This document shows, in pieces, positions 405 to 12,313 of a stretch of 64,000 nt of DNA (its first letter is position 1; each line of letters opens with the position of its first letter). Below the pieces are notes generated by a model. That model searched no databases and was not told the DNA's origin. It saw only the letters and a list, made by a program, of their open reading frames with translations. Origin of the DNA: Escherichia phage PGN829.1; sequence record NC_070871.1, one strand, 5' to 3'. The translations under genes and the position numbers were made by a program.

Positions 405-2465
405 TTACTTAACTGCTTTAACCAGCTTGGTAGCTAATTTAGCTTCTTCTTCAGTCAGACCCATTGCAGTGAATGACTTCTTAGCATGACGTTTATAGTC
501 TTGCAGAGCATGGCCTTTCTGATAGTCAGAATATGACGTATCGTTCAGGATGCTACGCAGATTATCAACGTGTTTACCAGAAGGAGCTACTTTAGAAGCA
601 GCAGCAGAACGTGTAGGTTTAACTGTCTTATCCTGCTTAACAGCTTTAGGTTTACCAATAGGCTTAGTTGTATAGGTAGCACGTACATCAGCAATCTTAG
701 CTACCACGTCACTACCTACATCAAATGCAGCCCAAGGCTTACGAGCTTTGGAACGCAGTTCTACCAGAAGGTCAGCAGCAGCTAACTTATCTTCTGGTGT
801 TGTTGCATTAAGGAACTCTTTAACCAGTTCCTGGATTTGTTCTTTCACAGTAGGAGCCTTCTTAATAACGGGTTTAAGGTCAGTAGCCTTCACTGGTTCA
901 GCAGCTACAGCTTCATTCAGTGACTCTTCCATGTCCAGTGCTTCTTTGCTAGCAACTGTACGGAATTGTTCTACAGAACCAGATGTGAGATTGGTGTATT
1001 TGAGGTTAGCACCACGATGTCCACCAACCATAATAAGTGTGGTAGGTGAACTATGGTTCCCAACGATGGCATCATTAAGTAGTTTCTTACCTACTTCAGT
1101 TTTAGACAAATAGATACCACTGTTAACGTTATTACGTTCCTCTTCCGACAGTTCAGCAATAATGTGATACGCAGATACACGCATCTTATTAGTGCTGTAC
1201 TGAGGAACAGCAAATACATCTTCTGGTGCTACTTTACCAAGGATAGTTACGTTACCACCGAAGCTACGAATATAGCTCATGGATGCTACATGCAGACCGT
1301 TAGAACAGTCCTGACGACGGTCAGGATCTACCAGGTCTTCCCGTACCTGCACTTTACAGCCTACCCACTGTTTGATGTTACCTGAGTGACAGTCAACGAA
1401 TACACGTTTACCATCTTCTTTCCCTTTATACTGAAGGCGTTTAAGGAACAGGATTGAACCATCATCAGCGATAGGCAATTCAGCAGTTTCCATGAACTTC
1501 ATCAGGTCTTCTACTGAGTGCAGACGGTCTTTAATAACCGGAGCCAGACGCTCAAGGAACTTAGTAAAGCCCTTGTAGTCTTTCAACTTGGCAGACTGAC
1601 GTAAGTGACGTTGCAGGTTCTCAACTCCGGGGATAACCCCATCGTTGGTAACAGCAACAACCACTTCATCTTCCTTCACATCAGTGTGAAAGTTAGCGTT
1701 ATCAGTACTAATAGCACCTAATGCAGCTAATTTCTCGGATGCAGCAGCCAGCTTATCCTGGTTCGTAGTTTTAGCTACTTCAATGTAAGGCAGTGGTGTT
1801 TGTTCTCGGTTGGTAAATACAAAATGTACGCCTTTGATGTTCTTGGCTTGTTTAGCAAACTCACCCATTTCATCATCGGATACTGCACGAATGGCAATAG
1901 GCCATTCCTGTCTAAGTACAGTGACAGTAAGATCAGAATTCCCCCACAATACGTCTTTAATAAAACGAATTAGTGCAGGATGGTTATGGTCTTTGTCCCA
2001 GCCAATAACCCACATCAGGTTGTCACGCTTGTCATAAAAACCATCTGTTACTGTTACTTCTGGTTCATTAGCCTGTATAGCCAGGAAGGTATCCATAGCT
2101 TTAGATACTAATGTCTTAGTAGGATTGCCCAGCTTAATATCAGAAACGATACGAGCTGGTGGAACACCTGTACCATCCTGAAAGAACTCTTTGAGTTTAG
2201 CTTTAGCGACCTTGAAGAAACGGACAAATCCATTAGTGTTCTTCTCTGCTTCCAGATACTCAGTACGTAGTGATACTTCTGGTGCAATGTTTACTTCTAT
2301 CAGGTCTTTGGTAATTCCCAAGCCTTTGGTTTGTGCTTCAGATACAATACGAGCAACCCGTGGGTCGCTCTGAGGATATACAATTGTGGAGCCATCGGGC
2401 TTCCACAGTGTAAGGTTACGACTGTCAACTGCCAGTGCGATGATAGAAATCAGTTCGATTTTCAT
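405..2465 (-). CDS. rIIB-like protein (by position; large conserved early-region protein)
   Basis: 686-aa ORF co-oriented with and 4 nt downstream of the GHKL-ATPase rIIA-like gene; order matches rIIA-rIIB pairs; no motif verified. Confidence 0.4.
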   Translation of the reverse strand: MKIELISIIALAVDSRNLTLWKPDGSTIVYPQSDPRVARIVSEAQTKGLGITKDLIEVNIAPEVSLRTEYLEAEKNTNGFVRFFKVAKAKLKEFFQDGTGVPPARIVSDIKLGNPTKTLVSKAMDTFLAIQANEPEVTVTDGFYDKRDNLMWVIGWDKDHNHPALIRFIKDVLWGNSDLTVTVLRQEWPIAIRAVSDDEMGEFAKQAKNIKGVHFVFTNREQTPLPYIEVAKTTNQDKLAAASEKLAALGAISTDNANFHTDVKEDEVVVAVTNDGVIPGVENLQRHLRQSAKLKDYKGFTKFLERLAPVIKDRLHSVEDLMKFMETAELPIADDGSILFLKRLQYKGKEDGKRVFVDCHSGNIKQWVGCKVQVREDLVDPDRRQDCSNGLHVASMSYIRSFGGNVTILGKVAPEDVFAVPQYSTNKMRVSAYHIIAELSEEERNNVNSGIYLSKTEVGKKLLNDAIVGNHSSPTTLIMVGGHRGANLKYTNLTSGSVEQFRTVASKEALDMEESLNEAVAAEPVKATDLKPVIKKAPTVKEQIQELVKEFLNATTPEDKLAAADLLVELRSKARKPWAAFDVGSDVVAKIADVRATYTTKPIGKPKAVKQDKTVKPTRSAAASKVAPSGKHVDNLRSILNDTSYSDYQKGHALQDYKRHAKKSFTAMGLTEEEAKLATKLVKAVK

Positions 2466-2469
2466 CAGA

Positions 2470-5037
2470 TTAGTTACCTTTCAGTTTATTTAGACGATTA
2501 CGGTAGAGGGACTTAAACCCAGGAATATCCTCTGGATTCTTCTTAAGGTGTTTGACCAAACTGCCCAAGTCCAGCGTCTGTAAGATGTCATTTTTATCCC
2601 AGCTATAGCTGAATAATTCTTTGTAACCATTAAGTATTTCAAAGTACTTATGGTTACGTGGATTAGTCATCACTATATATGGCTCTAGGTCATCTACTGA
2701 CTTAATGCAACCCATTTCAACAAGTTTTTCTTTGTTGTCATGTGGTCTATTCCGTAGAAAGTCGTATGCCCATTCATACTCTGGTTTAAAAATCAGATTC
2801 TGTAATGGTTTGAACGTTAGACCCAGTATGCCAAGGATTTCCCAATACTCTCTGTCATCCAGTCCTATGTATTCCAGAATACCGATGCGATGTTCAGTAA
2901 CATATTTCTTGAAGTCCTTACTGGTAATAACAGACATCAACTCATTAAAGCGAACATCATCAATGTGGATAGCACCTCGCCGTTTGGCCTTATTAGCTTC
3001 GATTTGATTGCGACAGACAACAGTATCTTCTTTCATCTCATCAGATAGCTCATACCATTTCCACATGGTTCCAATTCTGGCAGTTAATGGACTACCAGAA
3101 CCAACCTGATTAGCCAGTACATAGTACTTAGGATGCTCTACTTCAACGAAACCATACTTTTCATGACGACTTGGGTCAGCAAACTCCTTCTGAATATACG
3201 GCTTAGATTCCCAATCACCGTTTTTATTACGTACAGGAGTAGTACCAAGAACTGCATTCAATGAAATCAGAGCATTAGTTTTACCCCCTGCTTTGGTTTT
3301 ATTGGCAGCTATTGTCTTAGCCCGTTTCTCAGCAGCTATCTTAGCCTGCTCTCTGCGGTAGTTGGTTGGTTTGTCCCACTCATTATATTGAGTAAGGTCA
3401 ATCACCCGATAACCCATAGCAGTGAACTTAGCTACAGCTTCTTCTGCTGCACCCTTCTTAGGACCAACTAAGTGAACAAAAGCTGTACGCTCCAGGTCAC
3501 CTCGGTTGTATTCTGGGAAGTATGAGAAAGAGTCTGCACAATCAGATAAACGTCGGGTAACTACAACGTTCTTGGTAGTGAATATGCCAATACTCTGATG
3601 AGAGTTATGGAATATCCTAAAGTAGTCAGCGAGTTTACCCTTCTCCAAGTCAACACTGTTACCCTGGTTCACTATGTAACCAGACCACTTAATACCAGTA
3701 GCTTTTAAAGCAGCAAGCTGAGGTAAGTGTAGATGACGATATACTAATTCATGGAATGGGGAGTATGTACTTTCTTCGCGAGTATCCTTAAGAGCACGCA
3801 TAGCCTTACCATACAGCTTCTTAAGACCTGTATATTCAGGACGAGCTAATAATGCTTTATTGGATAGATTACGCCAATGCTTGATGTGATGCTTACGTTG
3901 CTTAGCCCACAAACTAGAGGACATATAACGTTGAACGATTCTGTCTGTAACAGCAAGCAGGAAAGGTGGATATTCCCAAAAGCGGGTAGAGGATTTAGAA
4001 GCATATTCCTCAACCTGCTTAATAGCTTCAGGAATCTTAGCCTTAATTTCCTTCTCCATACGGTCTACTAAATCTACACATAGAGTAGTAATACCATCGT
4101 CGGTTAACTTCTGGTTAGACAGTGTTTCTCGACTAGGAGCAATAGCTAGTGTATCTGGTGCAGCCTGAACTACTAAATTATCAGCACCAATGATATTCAT
4201 GAAGTTGAGAATAAGACCAACAGCCTCTTCACTAGCTGGGCTAGATACTATTGGGTACATTACGTTACCGTAACGAACAAATAAGTTACTGTTACCCATA
4301 TAGCCTTGATACCAGCTATCAGACATGTCATATGAACCAGGTTCAAATGACATACCTAACGTATTCAGTAAAGTGTAGTCACCCTGGTGAATACTATTAC
4401 CTTCCTCTGTTCTAACGAGTTTAGGAATACTAAGCTCAGCTTTAATCTCACCGTTAAATACAATAGATGTAATGTAATGCACAAAGGTATTTACATCATG
4501 CTTACCTAGCTGGAATTTAACTTCCAGACCAGATTCCTCAGTAGGAATATTAGTAACAATAGGAACAATACCCGGTTTACCATCGTTCTCAATTGCAGCT
4601 TTAGCTACGTTATATACCGACATCTTTCCTTGGTTCCATGAAGTAACCTGGAAGCTATCCGTATAAGCGAATGGAGATTTACATCCCAGACCAAAACCAC
4701 CAGTAACACTACTGTTGGACTTCTTAGTAGATGCACCATAGACACCATAAATGGAACCAATGAGTTCATCAGGGATGCCATTACCGAAGTCACGGAAGGT
4801 AATAAAGTTGTCAGTATCAATAGTGATACGAATAGGGGTATCAGTCTTACCTGCTTCAATATGAGCATCCCAACTGTTACAGATAGTCTCACGGACTACT
4901 GCCAGAGTAGGATTGTTATATAAGGAAGTACTTAATACGTGAAAGAATGCCGGGTCATCAGAGATGCCAAAGGCAATTGTTTCTTTGCCACCCAGTGTCG
5001 CTGAGGTAGCTACTTCATTGGTATCTGCAACTAACAT
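2470..5037 (-). CDS. rIIA-like protein with GHKL (Bergerat-fold) ATPase domain
   Basis: 855 aa; N-terminal GHKL motifs read in translation: N-box ETICNSWDAH, G1 box DFGNG, G2 box GGFGLG. Confidence 0.6.
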   Translation of the reverse strand: MLVADTNEVATSATLGGKETIAFGISDDPAFFHVLSTSLYNNPTLAVVRETICNSWDAHIEAGKTDTPIRITIDTDNFITFRDFGNGIPDELIGSIYGVYGASTKKSNSSVTGGFGLGCKSPFAYTDSFQVTSWNQGKMSVYNVAKAAIENDGKPGIVPIVTNIPTEESGLEVKFQLGKHDVNTFVHYITSIVFNGEIKAELSIPKLVRTEEGNSIHQGDYTLLNTLGMSFEPGSYDMSDSWYQGYMGNSNLFVRYGNVMYPIVSSPASEEAVGLILNFMNIIGADNLVVQAAPDTLAIAPSRETLSNQKLTDDGITTLCVDLVDRMEKEIKAKIPEAIKQVEEYASKSSTRFWEYPPFLLAVTDRIVQRYMSSSLWAKQRKHHIKHWRNLSNKALLARPEYTGLKKLYGKAMRALKDTREESTYSPFHELVYRHLHLPQLAALKATGIKWSGYIVNQGNSVDLEKGKLADYFRIFHNSHQSIGIFTTKNVVVTRRLSDCADSFSYFPEYNRGDLERTAFVHLVGPKKGAAEEAVAKFTAMGYRVIDLTQYNEWDKPTNYRREQAKIAAEKRAKTIAANKTKAGGKTNALISLNAVLGTTPVRNKNGDWESKPYIQKEFADPSRHEKYGFVEVEHPKYYVLANQVGSGSPLTARIGTMWKWYELSDEMKEDTVVCRNQIEANKAKRRGAIHIDDVRFNELMSVITSKDFKKYVTEHRIGILEYIGLDDREYWEILGILGLTFKPLQNLIFKPEYEWAYDFLRNRPHDNKEKLVEMGCIKSVDDLEPYIVMTNPRNHKYFEILNGYKELFSYSWDKNDILQTLDLGSLVKHLKKNPEDIPGFKSLYRNRLNKLKGN

Positions 5038-5080
5038 TTATTTACTCTCCAGATTAAATGTTGCTTCTTGGTTATGACTA

Positions 5081-5347
5081 TTAAGAATCTAATGCTGATT
5101 TACAGGCTTCAAAGATTACTTTACGTAATTCCCGTTCTTTTTCTGGTTCCTCGTGGGGACTGTAACCAAAAGGACTGTTTTGCATAAAACTAGTCAGAAT
5201 TAGTAAATCTTCTTCAGATAGACCATCAATAGTGATGGAGTATTGGTTTTTGCTTTTTACTGTAGCGTTAGCCATTTCGTTTCCCCGCCATTGCTTGTAG
5301 TACGAATACAGCCAGGTCTGCTGCTTGGTCATCACTAACTGGATCAT
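5081..5347 (-). CDS. hypothetical protein
   Basis: 88-aa ORF in co-oriented gene string. Confidence 0.3.
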   Translation of the reverse strand: MIQLVMTKQQTWLYSYYKQWRGNEMANATVKSKNQYSITIDGLSEEDLLILTSFMQNSPFGYSPHEEPEKERELRKVIFEACKSALDS

Positions 5348-5597
5348 TACCGTGCCCTAATTGAATGTGACCTTCATCATCCCATTCATCAAGTATACGT
5401 TGTACTTCAGACAAACCGGCTTGGATCATTTCTTTACTTGGTTCCAGCCATAACTTACGTTCCTCTGCCAGCGCAGCAATGCACATACATAGAGAAGCAA
5501 TATTTGCAGGGCAAGCAGCAATATCACCCGTAACTGCAATCTCACTAAGTGGAATAGCCTTACCGGTTTTACTATGAATTACTTCAGGATTAATCAT
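5268..5597 (-). CDS. hypothetical protein
   Basis: ORF 5268-5645 trimmed to internal ATG (MINPEV...) whose start overlaps the stop of the upstream gene (ATGA coupling). Confidence 0.35.
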   Translation of the reverse strand: MINPEVIHSKTGKAIPLSEIAVTGDIAACPANIASLCMCIAALAEERKLWLEPSKEMIQAGLSEVQRILDEWDDEGHIQLGHGNDPVSDDQAADLAVFVLQAMAGKRNG

Positions 5598-5814
5598 GAA
5601 TTTGCTCCAGGTTGTGGGCAGGAATAGGGAAACATGGATAGTCACCGGTAGGGTCCAGTGTCACTGATACATGCAGTGTATTTGTCATCTGGGTTAACAT
5701 CAGAGCAGCATTGAAATCATCCTGGGTACAGGCATACACAATGTCACCCTTCTCACCCTCACACATTACAGGTGTGTCTTTGATACGGTATTTAGCAGGC
5801 ATATGCCCTCCCAA
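5590..5814 (-). CDS. hypothetical protein
   Basis: 74-aa ORF; first gene after the terminator at 5829-5858. Confidence 0.3.
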   Translation of the reverse strand: MGGHMPAKYRIKDTPVMCEGEKGDIVYACTQDDFNAALMLTQMTNTLHVSVTLDPTGDYPCFPIPAHNLEQIHD

Positions 5815-5828
5815 AAGAGTTAATTGAA

Positions 5829-5858
5829 ACCAAAAAAAGACCTCCCGGAGGAGGTCTT
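5829..5858 (-). terminator. intrinsic terminator (minus strand)
   Basis: 9-bp stem AAGACCTCC/GGAGGTCTT with 4-nt loop, followed on minus strand by a T7 run; just downstream of the stop at 5871. Confidence 0.6.
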
Positions 5859-5870
5859 AGGTTTACTGTA

Positions 5871-6815
5871 TCATTCAGTAATAGTTTCACCGGGGATTAA
5901 CTTACGGAATTGAATAAAGTGAAGCAGATTACCTGAGTACAGATTCCCTTCTTTATCCATGGATGTAACACCTTGTTCCCATGTAACTGGGTTCATGTTA
6001 TTCACGTACTTTTCACCAAGGTTCATAGGCGTAGCCTGATGCTCAGTAGGTGAAGCATGAATTGGTTGTTTTTCTACCAACTTAGCAAACAGGTCAAGGT
6101 CATCGCTGATAGTAGATGGCTTACCTTCGAAGTTGTTATAAGAAGCACGGGCACAGCGAGCAGCAGAGACTTTAAGCAGCAAGCCTAAAATCTCTTCATT
6201 ACTTGGTTCATCACGAGTAATTCGTTGATATTTGCAATGATTGTAAGCATTAGCACAATCAACACTACGAATATAAGGCAGATGCCAGTCACCTTTCTTG
6301 AGCTTTTGCGGAACAGATTCTTCATGAGCCTTCTTCATGGCCTGAGCCAGTAAACGGATTTCCGGTTGAGCATCCTCATGGTCACGCAATCCATAGAAAT
6401 TAGCCCAACTTGTTGAAGTTACCACTACACGGATATGTGTGAATGGTTCCAGAATACGGTTAACAATTTGCTTATGTACTTGCCCACGTCGTAGCTGTTC
6501 AGCATACACAGCAGCAGCAGATGCAGCGTTATCCCAGATAAACTTAGCATCCTCAATCTCCATGGGAGTGAGTTCTTCGTCTGCTTGCATACCTTTCTGG
6601 TTCTTACCCCAGTGACTTGGCATCACTGGTTCATTACGAACTTGTTCGATGAACTTAGCTGTGGGAATAGCACGACTGCTTGAAGCATTACGGTTGAATA
6701 CTCGGTGGGTCATAAACTCACTGTGAATGAATCGGGGATAAACCAATTCAAAGGTAGTAATACGAGTTCCTGTTTCTGGGTGAACGGAATCTGCAATGAC
6801 AGTTGCCTTAATCAT
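5871..6815 (-). CDS. ThyX-like flavin-dependent thymidylate synthase family protein (divergent)
   Basis: 314 aa; segment FMTHRVFNRNASSSRA resembles the ThyX RHR-x7-S-x-R-Y signature with substitutions; sits with dCTP deaminase in a nucleotide-metabolism block. Confidence 0.45.
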   Translation of the reverse strand: MIKATVIADSVHPETGTRITTFELVYPRFIHSEFMTHRVFNRNASSSRAIPTAKFIEQVRNEPVMPSHWGKNQKGMQADEELTPMEIEDAKFIWDNAASAAAVYAEQLRRGQVHKQIVNRILEPFTHIRVVVTSTSWANFYGLRDHEDAQPEIRLLAQAMKKAHEESVPQKLKKGDWHLPYIRSVDCANAYNHCKYQRITRDEPSNEEILGLLLKVSAARCARASYNNFEGKPSTISDDLDLFAKLVEKQPIHASPTEHQATPMNLGEKYVNNMNPVTWEQGVTSMDKEGNLYSGNLLHFIQFRKLIPGETITE

Positions 6816-7258
6816 TAGAATGACCTTAGATAGTTGGTGATACCACTACGGTTTTCTGTAATCTTCTTAACCTGAACATATACCAGCTTAAACTCACTAC
6901 GGGGTAGTTCCTGTAATACTGCTATACCTTCGGTAAGGGCCACAGAGCACGCTACAGCGGTTTCTTTTTTAAAGGAGTACAAGTCTTCATACATAAGGGC
7001 TTCATACTCCCTACGAAGCATACAGAGAGCATCTCTTGCCTTATCACTTACTTCTTGTGAACCAGCAGACATAGCTAAGCTGTATATGATAAAGACTTGC
7101 TCAAAAACAAAGTCCAATAACCTATCAGGGTTGTTAGACCCCATGAATAATTTTGTTGTGTAGGAACGAGCTTTACGGTTGAGTTCATACTCATCCTCTA
7201 TGCCTTTATTATAAAGAATAGGATTTCGTTCCCTTTTCCGTAGGAATGGGATACGCAT
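6815..7258 (-). CDS. hypothetical protein
   Basis: 147-aa ORF abutting the upstream gene. Confidence 0.35.
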   Translation of the reverse strand: MRIPFLRKRERNPILYNKGIEDEYELNRKARSYTTKLFMGSNNPDRLLDFVFEQVFIIYSLAMSAGSQEVSDKARDALCMLRREYEALMYEDLYSFKKETAVACSVALTEGIAVLQELPRSEFKLVYVQVKKITENRSGITNYLRSF

Positions 7259-7656
7259 TAGTATTTACTACCTCTTCTATACCAGGGGTAATGATGAGTA
7301 GTGCTCTTTCCTTTGAATACATCCTTAGTACGTGGATTCTTTTGTATTTGAGCCAGGTAAAGTTGTGTATCATCGCCGCATGGGTTAAGCCAGAACTTAT
7401 CTATGATCCTGTCTACCTTAGATTTCAGATGAGGTTCCGGGGGAATGTAAGTATCAACAAATACCTGCCTACCTGACCATCCATGAATTAATGTTTGTTT
7501 CATCTTGGAGAGCATATTCTCCAGATTCTTTAATTCAACCTTAGAAACAGTAACATCTACTGAGTCATGAATGCCTGCGTGTGCAATTAGCCTTTCTTCC
7601 AGCTTACTAAAGTCCATATCATGTAGGACTGATTTACCTCGTCTATTTTGAAACAT
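7258..7656 (-). CDS. hypothetical protein
   Basis: 132-aa ORF in co-oriented string. Confidence 0.35.
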   Translation of the reverse strand: MFQNRRGKSVLHDMDFSKLEERLIAHAGIHDSVDVTVSKVELKNLENMLSKMKQTLIHGWSGRQVFVDTYIPPEPHLKSKVDRIIDKFWLNPCGDDTQLYLAQIQKNPRTKDVFKGKSTTHHYPWYRRGSKY

Positions 7657-7670
7657 AACAGTACCTGTAA

Positions 7671-7698
7671 ATAAAAAAGCCCACGGGTTAGGTGGGCT
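7671..7698 (-). terminator. intrinsic terminator (minus strand)
   Basis: Stem AGCCCAC/GTGGGCT with 7-nt loop, then T-run (TTTTTTAT) on minus strand; downstream of the stop at 7772. Confidence 0.5.
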
Positions 7699-7771
7699 TG
7701 GGTTAGGAGATGGATAAGCAATGAGCTGGAAGTAACTTCCAGAAGTACCCTCTTAGGGATACTTCGGTTAG

Positions 7772-8050
7772 TTACTCTGCTTTACTGCCACCATTGGTTT
7801 GAACAACAGTTACGTTTGTAACTTGGTTCTGCCCTTTGTTGGACAGTGACCAAATGAGTGCTACTACCCAGAAGACTAAAGACCAGCCTAATACAATATT
7901 GAGCACACCAATTCCCCACTTGGAGGCATGGCCTCGTGCAAAAGCAATGATAGTAGGTATGAGGTATACAGATAATATGAATAAGAAAACAAGGATTGCT
8001 GCTAAAGATTCCATGATGGTTCCTATGTGAGGTTGAGTTAGTTTCTTCAC
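7772..8050 (-). CDS. superinfection-immunity (Imm-like) small membrane protein
   Basis: 92 aa, two hydrophobic helices; motif PTIIAFARGH..KWGIGVLNIVLGWSLVFWVVALIWSL matches the recalled Imm_superinfect family pattern. Confidence 0.45.
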   Translation of the reverse strand: MKKLTQPHIGTIMESLAAILVFLFILSVYLIPTIIAFARGHASKWGIGVLNIVLGWSLVFWVVALIWSLSNKGQNQVTNVTVVQTNGGSKAE

Positions 8051-8087
8051 AAATAGCCCAACTATGCTGGGCTATTTAGGCAGCTAC

Positions 8088-8294
8088 TTACTCAGCATCT
8101 TTGCTTGCAGGAGCAAGAGCTTTCTTCAGGTAATTACGTACCGAACGATAGGTTTCTTTGGTAATTACTACATCACCACCTACGGTAGTAATAGCAGAGT
8201 TACCTGCGGTAAGTTCTTGCACTGCAATTACTTGGTTCGCATTAAGGGTCAGGCGAATACCAGTATTTTCTTGTGTTACTTGAAATACAGACAT
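8088..8294 (-). CDS. hypothetical protein
   Basis: 68-aa ORF. Confidence 0.3.
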   Translation of the reverse strand: MSVFQVTQENTGIRLTLNANQVIAVQELTAGNSAITTVGGDVVITKETYRSVRNYLKKALAPASKDAE

Positions 8295-8324
8295 GAGTTT
8301 TCCTTAATTAAGCCGGATAGCCTT

Positions 8325-8831
8325 TTATTTTGAAGGTCTAGCAGCTACTGGTTTGTTTTCCTGGTTCTGATACTTGCCATTGTAATTAGCAGGTTCCTGA
8401 ACCAGATGAAATAATACTTGAGCTATCCCAGCACCAGCCGGGATATGCAATTTCTTACGACCGTGATGGACCAGTTCGAGGGTAAGATACCCTTTCCATC
8501 CTGGTTCTATTACGGTATTGAACACTGATAATGCACGTCTTGCCCATGTAGACTTATCGTGAACGATTGCTACACAGGACGGGGACATGTTGAACTTCTC
8601 AATTGCTGAGGCCAAGGCGAACTTACCGAGATGGCGTGATACTTGATTTCCATCAACGACTTTCACCATTGGAATCAACCCAAATAAGCGATAGAAGGTA
8701 ATATCTTGTTTGATACGAATATCATAACCAGCTTCACCTAATCCATAACTTACACCATGCTCGGATACCTTACGGTCTGGGATATCCAGCAACTGAGATG
8801 AACGGTATAGAGAATTACCATTAACAACCAT
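8325..8831 (-). CDS. dcd: dCTP deaminase-like (dUTPase superfamily)
   Basis: 168 aa; C-terminal IEPGWKGYLTLEL...GAGIAQVLF matches the Dcd/dUTPase beta-clip signature. Confidence 0.55.
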   Translation of the reverse strand: MVVNGNSLYRSSQLLDIPDRKVSEHGVSYGLGEAGYDIRIKQDITFYRLFGLIPMVKVVDGNQVSRHLGKFALASAIEKFNMSPSCVAIVHDKSTWARRALSVFNTVIEPGWKGYLTLELVHHGRKKLHIPAGAGIAQVLFHLVQEPANYNGKYQNQENKPVAARPSK

Positions 8832-10006
8832 TATTTCATTCCTTTAGGGATATGAACTACCTCCCCAAAAGGTACGGTAGCATTGGGATTATTCAGAACA
8901 CACCAGATGATAGGAATATCAAATGGTAATTCTTCCATTGGACGAACATACATATCGGAGAATATGATTGCAGCGGTTGGTTTATTCTTAATAATCCACT
9001 CGCGTACTGGTTCCAGGTTTGTACCACCACGACCAGTAATCTTAATCTCTTCAAAAGTATCTTCTTCAGTGATGTCTATCTCTTCTTGAATAATATCGTC
9101 GAAGGTAATTAGGGACATCTTCTTAGGATTGAACTGGCTCTTGACGTAGGCAACCTCTGAGTTAAATCGCAGAGAATCTGCACTACTAATAGAACCAGAT
9201 ACATCCTCAAAGTAGGCTAAGTGTCGTAAGCGTCCTTCATCATCTTCCATGGAAGGTAGATAGATGTCAGTAAAACGACGGTTAGGTCTGGCCCACGTAT
9301 AATGAGTATCGTCAATGTCGGTAAAGAAGTTCATGAGGACTTCCTGCCATGGAACCACTGGTTTAAGGAATTGGGTAATAACCTCTTCCATACGACCAGC
9401 ACCCTTACCAGGCATTGTTCCACCAGCCATTTTCTGGCTCTGCATTGCTCGTACTACGTTGTTGACGACAGCACCCTGGGACTGCCCCGAAGTGGGGGAT
9501 TTCATGTCGCCAGCAAGACCTGCTCCAGCACCCCCTGACGGCTTCTGCCTTTTCTGAGGGTTCTTCATCAGGTCATCGTAGATGTCTTCTTCGACCCATC
9601 CTTTATATTGAGGGTCTTTGCAAATACCTTTATCAATGCCAGTGAACTTATAACCATCTTCTTCTAACTGAAGGTTAATGAAGTGGTCACACGCCTGGTT
9701 CCAGATTTCTGGGTCACGGCTTCCACGACGGATGCCATGCAGATATGCCACATGCCAAAGTTCATGCATTAACACTGTTTCTCTGGCATCTGGACACATC
9801 CAGATAAAGAAATCTGGATTGAAGTGAAGTTCTATCCCATCAGTACATGCAGTGGGACAATTCTCACGTTTCCATGAGAACTTAAGACTACATAGTAATG
9901 AACCAAAGAACGCAGCACTGCGTCCGAGAAATGCTTGAGCCTGAATACGGTCATACTCACGCATGAGTTGTTCATCACTAAGGGAGTGCTGAGGAAATTG
10001 GTTCAT
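8831..10006 (-). CDS. VWA-like domain protein with HExxH motif (DUF2201-type partner of MoxR ATPase)
   Basis: 391 aa; HELWH (HExxH) motif; immediately downstream of the AAA+ MoxR-like gene, the typical ATPase/VWA pair. Confidence 0.5.
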   Translation of the reverse strand: MNQFPQHSLSDEQLMREYDRIQAQAFLGRSAAFFGSLLCSLKFSWKRENCPTACTDGIELHFNPDFFIWMCPDARETVLMHELWHVAYLHGIRRGSRDPEIWNQACDHFINLQLEEDGYKFTGIDKGICKDPQYKGWVEEDIYDDLMKNPQKRQKPSGGAGAGLAGDMKSPTSGQSQGAVVNNVVRAMQSQKMAGGTMPGKGAGRMEEVITQFLKPVVPWQEVLMNFFTDIDDTHYTWARPNRRFTDIYLPSMEDDEGRLRHLAYFEDVSGSISSADSLRFNSEVAYVKSQFNPKKMSLITFDDIIQEEIDITEEDTFEEIKITGRGGTNLEPVREWIIKNKPTAAIIFSDMYVRPMEELPFDIPIIWCVLNNPNATVPFGEVVHIPKGMK

Positions 10007-10010
10007 TGTT

Positions 10011-11063
10011 TTATCCGTGAATGTAGCGAGAGATATTAGCAGCAGCCTTACGCCATTCAGGAGTAGCCTGAAGTTCTGGCAATGCTCTGCCTACTGTACG
10101 GAAGTACAGAATCTTATGGGTGAACGTTTTAAAGCGTTCAATGTACTGAAGAACATCAGCGAAGTTTTCTTCAGTAGTTTTGTTAGCCAGGTGGTTAACA
10201 GTAGCCCAACACAGGTTGTTATCTTCCGGTAGTGCACAGCCCAGAGGGTCTTTGACTACTTTCTCAATCGTAATCATACGATTGTATACCTGAGTGAATT
10301 GAACAAACTCTGTAGCCTTACCGGCAGTAACATGTCCTGCGTAGTAGATAGAATCTTCATCTGGCAGAGCACCTTCAGGACGGTTCTTGAGGTCTTTGTT
10401 AACAAAGTCCCAGGTGCGTGGGCAACAGAACGTTTTGTTCTTATGGGCTGGGTCGAAGTCATGCAGATAACCTGGGTTAGCATGTAAGAATGCAACCAGA
10501 CGTTCATCCCATTCTTGTGGAATCATTACATCTTCAACAAAGATGTCGAAGTTAAGTTCCATTTCGAAGTGAACCACGCGAGACTGCATTGCAGTGCCCA
10601 GTGGGTTAACAATGGCACGGTCAGTAGCTTTGTTACCAGCACATATAATCATCACATTAGGATGGAGTTTTTTCTGACCAGTCATACGGTCCAGAATCAG
10701 TTTGTATGCAGCAGCTACTACTTCTTTTCTGGCTGAGTTGAACTCATCAAGGAACAGGAGCCAACCATTATATCCTTCCGGTATCTCATCCCCCTCAATA
10801 GGGAATAAGTCAGCGAATGGGATAAACTCTGCACGGTCACCATTACGGAATGGTAGACCAGACAAATCCTCTGGGGCAGAAGTAGACAGACGATGGTCTA
10901 TCAGTTTCATACCAAATTCTTCTGCAACAGAGCGAATAATTGCAGATTTACCCATGCCTGGTGATGAAGTCAGGAATGGTACGTTACCTGCTTGCAAGGC
11001 ACGAATAATAAAGTTACGGGCCTGACGTGTATTACATACGGTCAGTGAGTCAATGCTCGCCAT
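10011..11063 (-). CDS. AAA+ ATPase, MoxR-like
   Basis: 350 aa; Walker A SSPGMGKS, Walker B LLFLDEFN. Confidence 0.6.
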   Translation of the reverse strand: MASIDSLTVCNTRQARNFIIRALQAGNVPFLTSSPGMGKSAIIRSVAEEFGMKLIDHRLSTSAPEDLSGLPFRNGDRAEFIPFADLFPIEGDEIPEGYNGWLLFLDEFNSARKEVVAAAYKLILDRMTGQKKLHPNVMIICAGNKATDRAIVNPLGTAMQSRVVHFEMELNFDIFVEDVMIPQEWDERLVAFLHANPGYLHDFDPAHKNKTFCCPRTWDFVNKDLKNRPEGALPDEDSIYYAGHVTAGKATEFVQFTQVYNRMITIEKVVKDPLGCALPEDNNLCWATVNHLANKTTEENFADVLQYIERFKTFTHKILYFRTVGRALPELQATPEWRKAAANISRYIHG

Positions 11064-11097
11064 TTACTTACTCTCCTAAAGTTAATGGAATTACTAA

Positions 11098-11424
11098 TTA
11101 AGATTTGATACATGGGTATGCTGTATCAATAGCTAACAGAACCACGTCTGATGGCACTTTTACTGCATTAACCTTTCGGTCGTACAGAATAATAGTGGCT
11201 ACTCTGTCAAATATGGCTCCTAACTTCATATTCTCCGGTACACAATTATTTCCTGCCTCTACACCCATAGTAACCATGCCCATGAAGTAACCCTGGTTCA
11301 CAAAGTTTGCATTATTGGCTTTGTAGTCGGCAGCAGCGTCTAACAGAGTTTCACGGCTGGATGCTTGAGCATTGAATGACAGAACTGATAAAGCTACTAC
11401 AGCAACAGCAATTAAAGTTTTCAT
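11098..11424 (-). CDS. secreted/periplasmic protein (signal peptide)
   Basis: 108 aa; N-terminal MKTLIAVAVVALSVLSFNAQA signal-peptide-like segment. Confidence 0.4.
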   Translation of the reverse strand: MKTLIAVAVVALSVLSFNAQASSRETLLDAAADYKANNANFVNQGYFMGMVTMGVEAGNNCVPENMKLGAIFDRVATIILYDRKVNAVKVPSDVVLLAIDTAYPCIKS

Positions 11425-11610
11425 TTAGTTACCTTTTAACTCGTTGAGTTGAAGTACTCCGGTAGGGGTTAATGACCACCCAAGACCAGCATTAAACTGT
11501 ACTAAGCCCAGTTTCTTAAGAGACTGTGCGGTTTTATTATTACGGTTGCTGGTGGCAGAACCACCTTGAACCATGCGAAGGAAGATTGCTTGGGACTGTG
11601 TTAATTTCAA
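11425..11610 (-). CDS. hypothetical protein
   Basis: 61-aa ORF, start overlaps neighbour (coupled). Confidence 0.3.
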   Translation of the reverse strand: MKLTQSQAIFLRMVQGGSATSNRNNKTAQSLKKLGLVQFNAGLGWSLTPTGVLQLNELKGN

Positions 11611-11816
11611 AGGTAATATCCTTCCAGGTTTATTGGAGTTACAAATGTACTTGCTGATAGATAGAATGTTTTACCAGTCTCTACAGCAACAGCAGCAGGT
11701 TTACCATCGGGTAAGAGAACTTTTAGGCACACCGTCTGCATATAAATAAAACCATTGGCAGGTTGTACATCACCAAAAGTTACCTCATTGTTTCCAGAAC
11801 GATTTGTTACTTTCAC
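11607..11816 (-). CDS. hypothetical protein
   Basis: 69-aa ORF, 4-nt overlaps both sides. Confidence 0.3.
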   Translation of the reverse strand: MKVTNRSGNNEVTFGDVQPANGFIYMQTVCLKVLLPDGKPAAVAVETGKTFYLSASTFVTPINLEGYYL

Positions 11817-12073
11817 TCATCTTCTCCTTCATCTGGGAGTGGTGATAAATCTACACATAAATGCTCAAAGCGTTTTTCTAAGACAGCAATTCTCTTTTGA
11901 TAAAATGACAGCAGTTCAGGAAGTATTCTTGTACGAGCTTGCGGTCCTAAATCCGTACCATTGAATGATACTTTCACCATATGAGGTGACTTCTTCAAAC
12001 TAGCTAATTGCTGTCGGTTGTCGTTGTATTCTTCATACAATTTCTTAACCAAACGTAGATTGTGGATATTCAT
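11813..12073 (-). CDS. hypothetical protein
   Basis: 86-aa ORF, coupled. Confidence 0.3.
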   Translation of the reverse strand: MNIHNLRLVKKLYEEYNDNRQQLASLKKSPHMVKVSFNGTDLGPQARTRILPELLSFYQKRIAVLEKRFEHLCVDLSPLPDEGEDE

Positions 12074-12258
12074 TTTTTCTCCGGTACGAACTGCATTACA
12101 CAGTTTTGATTACGAGGGATATTCAATTCACATTCATGCTTGAGGGTTTGCGTTACAGAATTTGGAGTAGAACCAAAGTAGGTATTCGAAATAGCTACAA
12201 ATCCTGCACCTATCAAACCACCCAGTAAGAATGAGAAGAATGCAATCTCTTTATACAT
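12070..12258 (-). CDS. small membrane protein
   Basis: 62 aa with one hydrophobic helix (FFSFLLGGLIGAGFVAI). Confidence 0.3.
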   Translation of the reverse strand: MYKEIAFFSFLLGGLIGAGFVAISNTYFGSTPNSVTQTLKHECELNIPRNQNCVMQFVPEKK

Positions 12259-12283
12259 TTCCTGGCTCCAGAATGTTTAAGTC

Positions 12284-12313
12284 AAAAAAAGACCTCCCTT
12301 CAATAGGGAGGTC
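12284..12313 (-). terminator. intrinsic terminator (minus strand)
   Basis: 8-bp stem GACCTCCC/GGGAGGTC, 7-nt loop, then T7 run on minus strand; downstream of the stop at 12363. Confidence 0.55.

Follow-up and report, generated by a model that had tools for sequence, protein, structure and literature searches.

Escherichia phage PGN829.1 carries the N4 gp24/gp25 gene pair, predicted to encode a MoxR-class AAA+ ATPase and a VWA partner with a zincin-like domain

The genes gp24 and gp25, which encode an AAA ATPase and a von Willebrand factor A (VWA) protein in phage N4, belong to the set of 14 core genes in N4-like phages and are two of the five core genes that have been classed as function-unknown (Chan et al. 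2014, PMC4193335). In N4, both genes give rise to middle-gene transcripts, and their products are absent from the listed virion proteins (PMC4193335). The same architecture, consisting of a MoxR AAA+ ATPase and a VWA protein with an N-terminal metallopeptidase domain, has been described for a pair in group 2.2 jumbo phages (PMC7824862). A mechanistic template for such pairs is the insertion of a finger of the VWA protein into the pore of the MoxR ATPase, with the MIDAS (metal ion-dependent adhesion site), defined by the motif DxSxS-T-D, binding the target (PMC13036017). Here, we describe a gene pair at positions 8831-11063 on the minus strand of a 64,000-nt window of Escherichia phage PGN829.1 (NC_070871.1); all coordinates without further specification refer to this whole window. 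The two genes represent N4 gp24 and gp25 in a Gamaleyavirus as their homologs, and we lean towards the reading that their products form an ATP-driven remodel-and-cleave machine, in which a MoxR motor and a VWA-zincin act on a cytoplasmic protein in mid-infection.

10011-11063, minus strand: gp24-like AAA+ ATPase of the predicted MoxR class, 350 amino acids (list of open reading frames, ORFs)
8831-10006, minus strand: gp25-like protein, 391 amino acids, with a zincin-like domain, a linker and a VWA-like domain (ORF list)

In a preliminary description of this DNA, an ATPase with the Walker A motif SSPGMGKS and a directly following 391-aa protein with an HELWH motif had been placed at 8831-11063. 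This span comprises exactly the two ORFs, the motifs are found at residues 33-40 and 81-85, respectively, and the genes are separated by a gap of 4 nt. The window belongs to a Gamaleyavirus (Schitoviridae, G7C/N4-like), and over the 2.2 kb of the pair its DNA shares 93-98.5% identity with more than 50 deposited genomes of Escherichia, Shigella, and Klebsiella phages of this genus. The ATPase is 100% identical to the 'ATP-binding protein' of phage UE-S5b, and the gp25-like protein is 97-98% identical to deposited Gamaleyavirus proteins. Furthermore, the ATPase matches PHROG_1297 ('ATPase', E 6.8e-134) and its partner PHROG_1314 (E 1.8e-144), and homologs of the two proteins were found in 939 and 1774 protein clusters at E<=1e-5. 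Because of the PHROG and Pfam matches, the DNA identity, and the many homologs, both ORFs are regarded as real genes and not as chance ORFs.

In the RefSeq record of phage St11Ph5, the homologs are annotated as gp24 (ATPase) and gp25 within the gene order gp15/gp16 (RNA polymerase II, RNAPII), gp17, small ORFs, gp24, gp25, gp26 (dCTP deaminase), and gp30 (thymidylate synthase). This gene order is also kept in roseophages and in Sinorhizobium phage ort11. The assignment to N4 gp24 and gp25 thus follows from homology and conserved position: the proteins are homologous, their order and genomic position are the same, and nothing material differs. The pair is accordingly already catalogued among known core genes, an identity that the preliminary description did not recognize, and, judged by sequence, there is nothing new in the genes of this window, which are near-identical to deposited and similarly annotated sequences.

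The layout of the genes points to joint expression with nucleotide metabolism. The following elements surround the pair:

11073-11077, minus strand: AGGAG ribosome-binding site of the ATPase gene (sequence read)
8325-8831, minus strand: dCTP deaminase, homolog of gp26 (Pfam DCD 2.7e-16, PHROG_1663)
12291-12313, minus strand: terminator-like hairpin upstream of the unit (9-bp stem and T-run, consensus match only)
7677-7699, minus strand: terminator-like hairpin downstream of the unit (8-bp stem and T-run, consensus match only)

The AGGAG motif is located 9 nt from the ATG of the ATPase gene. Reading of the junctions showed that the stop codon of the ATPase gene and the start codon of the gp25-like gene are separated by a 4-nt spacer (TAA-AACA-ATG), and that the TAA of the latter shares bases with the start codon of the dCTP deaminase gene (TAATG). 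The three genes therefore form one tightly coupled unit. The unit of about 4.6 kb, which is bracketed on the same strand by the two hairpins as consensus matches only, also includes small ORFs and a T4 Imm-like superinfection-immunity gene. A scan of the region for sigma-70 promoters gave fewer matches than shuffled sequence and was not used. In N4-like phages, RNAPII is among the early products and goes on to transcribe the middle genes (PMC9163698). In the window, the pair is located downstream of gp15/gp16, which encode RNAPII, and of gp17 and thus in the middle-gene block, not in the early region to which it had been assigned before; by analogy to N4, transcription in the middle phase would be expected in PGN829.1 as well.

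This position bears on the role that has been proposed for the jumbo-phage pair, namely in the assembly of virions and in processing by proteolysis (Iyer et al. 2021, PMC7824862), a proposal made by analogy to a MoxR-vWA system needed for the development of the tails of Acidianus two-tailed virus (PMC7824862). Transferred to gp24/gp25, the pair would be a morphogenesis chaperone and protease that assists head or tail assembly and processes structural proteins. We consider this unlikely. The N4-like pair resides in a middle block for replication and nucleotide metabolism, is translationally coupled to dCTP deaminase, and lies on the strand opposite to the late structural cassette region of N4-like phages (region according to PMC9163698), and the middle transcripts of N4 gp24/gp25 and their absence from the listed virion proteins point in the same direction (PMC4193335). 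In some N4-like roseophages, on the other hand, virion-protein genes are found near gp24/gp25 (PMC4193335). The related jumbo phage RaK2, which has a homologous pair, encodes it after annotated virion structural proteins and an Hsp70-like gene, and in cyanophage S-TIM61 the pair comes after Hsp20 and before a virion structural protein. The RaK2 partner consists of DUF2201_N and DUF2201 as in the window, while the jumbo-phage proteins are longer than gp24/gp25 and have inserts in both. Overall, the virion-assembly proposal is a poor fit to the genomic context of N4-like phages and to the plasmid copies described below.

The class assignment of the ATPase is based on the following features:

10944-10967, minus strand: Walker A/P-loop, residues 33-40, SSPGMGKS (sequence read)
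10818-10886, minus strand: helix-2 (H2) insert region, residues 60-82 (AlphaFold2 model and alignment)
10743-10760, minus strand: Walker B, residues 102-107, LLFLDE (alignment)
10416-10634, minus strand: stretch with N144, R162 and R216 as candidates for sensor 1, the arginine finger and sensor 2, respectively (alignment; putative roles by position in the AAA+ fold)

In a cross-lineage alignment of 12 ATPases including those of S-TIM61, RaK2, rV5, Atu_ph07, TM27A, and PAc at 18-30% identity, G38 and K39 of Walker A, D106 and E107 of Walker B, as well as N144, R162, and R216 are invariant, with R216 being part of a CPRTW/SPRSW motif. The H2 insert contains the motif P64-x-D66-x-x-G69-x-P71 (PxDLxGLP), of which D66 is invariant and P64, G69, and P71 are nearly so. 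MoxR-like (clade 7) ATPases are defined by the H2 insert, which in NorQ contacts the VWA finger of NorD (PMC13036017). An AlphaFold2 model of the ATPase, built from a 26-sequence alignment (predicted local distance difference test, pLDDT, 85.4; predicted template-modelling score 0.79), has an H2-insert β-hairpin with strands 71-74 and 77-80 between β2 and β3, a pre-sensor-1 hairpin with strands 131-133 and 137-144, and a C-terminal helical extension of about 80 residues, which is specific to the gp24 family and is retained in plasmid homologs. In a Foldseek search with this model, NorQ chains were retrieved with E values of about 1e-7 and template-modelling scores, normalized by target length, of 0.60-0.65, and the MoxR ATPase CbbQ2 (6l1q) with 1.9e-7; AAA modules of dynein and Rea1/midasin rank alongside. 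Among Pfam families, only generic AAA matches the window ATPase above its cut-off (28.7 bits against 21.2), and its 26 relatives match AAA_5 in 24 cases (best 9e-6), bpMoxR in 7, and AAA_3 in 6, all of them weakly. Taken together, model and sequence support gp24-like as a putative MoxR-class (clade 7, helix-2-insert) AAA+ ATPase.

NorQ/NorD and CbbQ/CbbO are thus the closest solved folds for the ATPase, and the systems share the H2-insert hairpin, a VWA partner with DxSxS-T-D and adjacent genes. However, sequence similarity between NorQ/CbbQ and the gp24-like protein was not detectable by HMMER against the PDB, and gp24 differs from them by its extra C-terminal helical domain. In single-sequence and profile searches of the PDB, midasin was the sole match of the ATPase, with E values of 9e-5 and 1.6e-5. 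The VWA fold matches of the partner, too, include a midasin/Rea1 part, the MIDAS domain of MDN1; unlike gp24/gp25, however, midasin consists of one giant polypeptide of eukaryotes, in which six AAA modules are fused and a peptidase is lacking. No NCBIfam model matched the ATPase, the NCBIfam scan of the gp25-like protein yielded nothing of use, and PADLOC defence models returned only a 13.8-bit DolB match for the ATPase and none for the partner.

The partner is composed of the following segments:

9248-9958, minus strand: DUF2201_N putative metallopeptidase domain, residues 17-253 (Pfam envelope)
9752-9766, minus strand: HExxH motif H81-E82-L-W-H85 (alignments)
9686-9688, minus strand: D107 in the invariant motif A105-x-D107-x-x-x-N111, candidate third zinc ligand, with H90 as alternative (alignment, putative role)
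9254-9295, minus strand: basic linker motif W238-x-R-P-N-R243-R244...Y249-L-P251 (alignment)
8849-9220, minus strand: VWA-like domain (DUF2201), residues 263-386 (Pfam, Foldseek)
9191-9205, minus strand: MIDAS D268-x-S270-x-S272 (alignments)
9020-9022, minus strand: MIDAS T329 (alignments)
8954-8956, minus strand: MIDAS D351 (alignments)

The earlier proposal of a VWA/HExxH protein is borne out by matches above the Pfam cut-offs to DUF2201_N (PF13203; 4.8e-56, 190.8 bits, cut-off 23.2) and DUF2201 (PF09967; 2.2e-34, 118.7 bits, cut-off 26.4) and by a complete MIDAS. The conservation across N4-like phages that had been named as a check was also found, since the pair belongs to the core genes (PMC4193335) and the residues are kept in 27 N4-like partner sequences. 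These sequences and 13 cross-lineage sequences spanning eight phage lineages were used for the partner alignments. H81, E82, and H85 are invariant in the N4-like sequences, and H81, H85, D107, R244, and P216 are invariant in both alignments. In the cross-lineage sequences, H90 is near-invariant, and E82 is present in 12 of the 13. In the AlphaFold2 model of the partner (pLDDT 77), the helical N-terminal domain is well predicted, while the linker at about residues 150-256 has low confidence. A few relatives of the partner match Peptidase_M91 and M48, weakly only, and a search of BFVD retrieved only uncharacterised phage homologs.

The label 'HNH endonuclease' on gp25-like proteins derives its sole support from PHROG_1314 and GenBank/RefSeq labels. 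No HNH family was found in the window protein or its 27 relatives, even at E<=5 (Pfam), the conserved histidines form the HExxH motif, and the true HNH homing endonucleases at this place are separate ORFs; the partner being an HNH endonuclease is therefore practically ruled out. The label looks like a propagated misannotation, which a note in the RaK2 record traces to a roseophage ORF.

The C-terminal domain was modelled as a minimal six-stranded α/β domain. The best 50 Foldseek matches in the PDB are mostly VWA/integrin I domains with probabilities of 0.97-1.0 and E values of about 1e-3, including the VWA domain of CLCA1, integrin I domains, VWA2 of ArnB, and the MIDAS domain of MDN1. In addition, a PDB profile search gave a marginal match to the integrin alpha-X I-domain over the DxSxS strand, and four members of the partner family match VWA_CoxE (Pfam). 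The MIDAS residues D268, S270, S272, T329, and D351 are invariant in both partner alignments. In the linker, W238, P241, R244, Y249, and P251 are invariant in the 27 N4-like sequences, and R243 is nearly invariant in the 13 cross-lineage sequences. Residues 234-256 have pLDDT values below 50 in the monomer model, and by analogy to the finger or linker of NorD the segment W238-RPNRR-YLP is a candidate for an ATPase-engaging finger or linker. Compared to NorD and CbbO, gp25 is much smaller, has a minimal VWA domain of about 125 residues, and carries an N-terminal zincin with HExxH, which NorD and CbbO lack; an evident metalloenzyme client, too, is missing for gp24/gp25.

The comparison with these systems raises the question of whether the pair works without proteolysis, as a metallochaperone or enzyme activase that opens a phage or host metalloenzyme and uses HExxH as a metal-handling site. 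The models would be NorQ/NorD (iron insertion), CbbQ/CbbO (Rubisco activase), CoxD/CoxE, and chelatases, and one candidate client would be an enzyme of nucleotide metabolism. Those close fold relatives of the ATPase that have been characterised structurally are all of such a type (PMC13036017). Members of the partner family match VWA_CoxE, genes for thymidylate synthase (td/ThyX) or dCTP deaminase are found within a few genes of the pair in N4-like phages, RaK2, and S-TIM61, and the Atu_ph07 partner lacks the catalytic Glu. Nevertheless, such a function appears distinctly unlikely. Of 13 distant lineages, 12 retain E82, and conservation extends over the whole HExxH helix, as it does in active zincins. 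Moreover, a candidate client enzyme common to all carriers was not found, plasmids and rV5 have neither thymidylate synthase nor deaminase genes nearby, and neither dCTP deaminase nor ThyA depends on the insertion of a metal cofactor.

The two genes also occur together far outside the Gamaleyaviruses. A tblastn search over 50,697 phage records found the partner in 741 and the ATPase in 826 of them, with an almost identical breakdown by host genus, and with the N4-like profile the partner family comprises 21,717 clusters of 50% identity at E<=1e-3. The linkage of ATPase and partner is kept in at least seven other phage lineages and in plasmids, and the two genes are strictly co-inherited. The arrangement in individual phages is as follows:

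Cyanophage S-TIM61: ATPase directly upstream of the partner
RaK2: ATPase directly upstream of the partner
Atu_ph07: ATPase directly upstream of the partner
Aeromonas phage PAc: ATPase directly upstream of the partner
Rhizobium phage TM27A: ATPase about 1 kb upstream of the partner
rV5: ATPase 3.6 kb from the partner, on the other strand

In profile comparisons with the gp24 family, the ATPases of S-TIM61, RaK2, and rV5 gave E values of 6.7e-40, 4.3e-31, and 8.3e-23, respectively. The neighbours in these phages are mostly genes of nucleotide and DNA metabolism, encoding ThyX, td, DNA polymerase I, polynucleotide kinase, RNA ligase, Nudix, and glutaredoxin. The partner is furthermore encoded by 107 plasmids in PLSDB. 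On a conjugative plasmid of Burkholderia pseudomallei (4889-8158 of its locus), the ATPase (1.4e-39 against the gp24 family in profile comparison) and the VWA-like protein are encoded immediately upstream of VirB type IV secretion genes. On pSYSA of Synechocystis (5934-8212 of its locus), the genes for the MoxR ATPase Sll7029 (7.3e-61 in the corresponding comparison) and the VWA-like protein Sll7028 are adjacent to each other amid toxin-antitoxin modules. The plasmid homologs of both proteins are full-length, and their genes are adjacent or one gene apart. Thus, Sll7029/Sll7028 and the Burkholderia cassette resemble gp24/gp25 over the full length of both proteins, but are located on plasmids, and the latter has an extra 309-aa ORF between the genes that has no detectable relative in the phage loci.

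A search for a conserved third component was negative: the 309-aa plasmid ORF and the 303-325-aa ORF upstream of the gene in rV5/KP12 are mutually unrelated and belong to no Pfam family. Two candidates for an ATPase were rejected, namely the rV5 ORF upstream of the partner, which is not an ATPase, and an AAA ATPase near a copy of the partner on a Rhodococcus plasmid, which is outside the gp24 family.

The presence of the cassette on plasmids and in other phage lineages argues against a purely virion-assembly role. Full-length cassettes are found on plasmids that make no virions, and the virions of the phage carriers, among them podoviruses, myoviruses, and jumbo phages, are built in completely different ways. 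The same distribution could point to a dedicated counter-defence or establishment factor that degrades a component of host immunity or restriction upon entry into a new cell. In the sample, the module is confined to mobile elements, i.e. phages and large plasmids, and the pSYSA copy amid toxin-antitoxin modules as well as the Burkholderia copy next to transfer genes would suit such a function. Still, we hold it to be very unlikely for gp24/gp25. Counter-defence genes are typically variable accessory genes, whereas this pair belongs to the strictly conserved core and keeps about 50% identity between phages of Alpha-, Beta-, and Gammaproteobacteria. Its expression belongs to the middle phase rather than being immediate, and there was no PADLOC match, although PADLOC holds defence and not anti-defence genes.

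Expression together with replication and nucleotide genes, the non-structural placement in most carriers, and the plasmid copies therefore make a cytoplasmic host protein or a replication-associated protein of the mobile element a likelier target than a virion component. The earlier guess that such pairs may remodel host complexes agrees with these findings but does not follow from them. For the remodel-and-cleave machine, we infer the following sequence of steps. The pair would be produced from one operon with dCTP deaminase in the middle phase, i.e. during replication and nucleotide metabolism. gp24 presumably forms a hexameric ring, and the VWA domain of gp25, or its basic linker W238-x-RPNRR-...-YLP, would engage the pore and the H2 inserts of gp24. 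The cation bound at the MIDAS might then capture an acidic residue of the target protein, and ATP hydrolysis would twist or stretch adaptor and target; docking and MIDAS capture are drawn here by analogy to NorQ/NorD, CbbQ/CbbO, and midasin. Finally, the zincin-like N-terminal domain with HExxH and the invariant Asp would cut the captured or remodelled protein. Alternatively, the zincin step might consist of the ATP-gated release of an autoinhibited peptidase. In a more far-reaching version, the pair would be an ATP-fuelled, MIDAS-targeted protease, common to N4-like phages, several other unrelated lytic phage lineages, and large plasmids, that removes or remodels one conserved host protein which has to be gone for replication or establishment; this generalization is rather improbable.

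Several observations weigh against a remodel-and-cleave machine. The peptidase activity is predicted from HExxH only. Sequence and profile searches of the PDB found no solved peptidase related to the N-terminal domain, and a Foldseek search of the PDB with the full partner model retrieved no peptidase among the best 50 matches, which are dominated by the VWA domain. The partner of Atu_ph07 (3944-5233 of its locus) has HQILH with an intact MIDAS; catalysis may therefore be dispensable, and, judging by this motif, the peptidase may be inactive in the Atu_ph07 lineage. On the side of the ATPase, the window protein reaches 17.5 bits for Pfam AAA_5, which is below the gathering score of 22. Because of this score below the curated threshold, the term 'MoxR-type', which was used in the preliminary description, holds by fold, motifs including the H2 insert, and partner, but not by family assignment. 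In addition, the adjoining chaperone (Hsp20, Hsp70-like) or virion-protein genes in RaK2 and S-TIM61 are in keeping with a role in assembly, and the plasmid copies could serve a different substrate from the phage copies. Finally, a literature search turned up no experiments with members of the gp24/gp25 family, and sll7028/sll7029 were found only in an expression study.

In sister Gamaleyaviruses, the locus is a site of homing endonucleases, which are located between the two genes, as in UE-S5a, or inside the ATPase gene, as in U1G; the window has neither. In the closest relatives UE-S5a/b, UE-M3, and UE-M6, a free-standing gene for a 158-aa HNH homing endonuclease is found in the 4-nt spacer between the ATPase and VWA-peptidase genes (1676-2152 of the locus in UE-S5a), so that positions 10007-10010 of the window represent the empty site. 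In U1G, an 882-nt insertion (2421-3302 of the locus) splits the ATPase gene precisely at the boundary of L105 and D106 in Walker B and carries an ORF for an HNH homing endonuclease. The 3' part of the insertion contains the group I intron core element GAUAUAGUCU and a P9-like hairpin, and comparison with Rfam RF00028 gave 23.7 bits (E 0.001), which is below the gathering score of 50. Because the insertion ends in C instead of the usual G, it is only a candidate for self-splicing. Truncated ATPase products of 224-231 aa stand for about 90 database sequences. The ATPase gene of the window is free of a U1G-type insertion.

Two further genes near the pair encode putative immunity proteins. Downstream of the dCTP deaminase gene and within the gp24/gp25 transcription unit, a 92-aa membrane protein (7772-8050, minus strand) matches the T4 Imm-type superinfection immunity family PF14373 at 7.9e-17. 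Directly upstream of the ATPase gene, a 108-aa ORF (11098-11424, minus strand) has a signal-peptide-like N-terminus and weakly matches Pfam Rap1a, the immunity protein of a type VI secretion system (T6SS) amidase, with an E value of 0.0021 below the cut-off; its homolog is named 'tai4' in the UE-S5a record. From these similarities, it is a possible phage-encoded periplasmic T6SS-immunity-like protein.

N4-like gene arrays were also found in bacterial contigs. A 727-kb contig of the isolate Mesorhizobium yinganensis CN2-181 contains such an array (4881-12306 of the locus) with the genes for ATPase, VWA-peptidase, dCTP deaminase, and then thymidylate synthase in the same order at 44% identity. 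In a 297-kb contig of a Roseococcus metagenome-assembled genome, the genes checked were those for an N4-type RNAPII subunit and for the ATPase. These arrays could stem from an N4-like element that is integrated or resident in some other way, or from an artefact of assembly. The scan of genome contigs used narrow peptide patterns and returned only N4-like elements; it is therefore uninformative with regard to chromosomal DUF2201 genes.

If the far-reaching version of a protease common to phages and plasmids holds true, gp24/gp25 would represent a new class of two-component AAA+ proteases composed of a MoxR motor and a VWA-zincin, in parallel to Cdc48-Wss1/SPRTN or FtsH. The cassette recurs in jumbo phages of the RaK2 and Atu_ph07 types, rV5-like phages, cyanophages, Aeromonas and Rhizobium phages, and plasmids. 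Identification of the substrate would fill a gap in the infection cycle of N4 and add to the functions of MoxR-VWA systems, which so far comprise metal insertion and the assembly of complexes.

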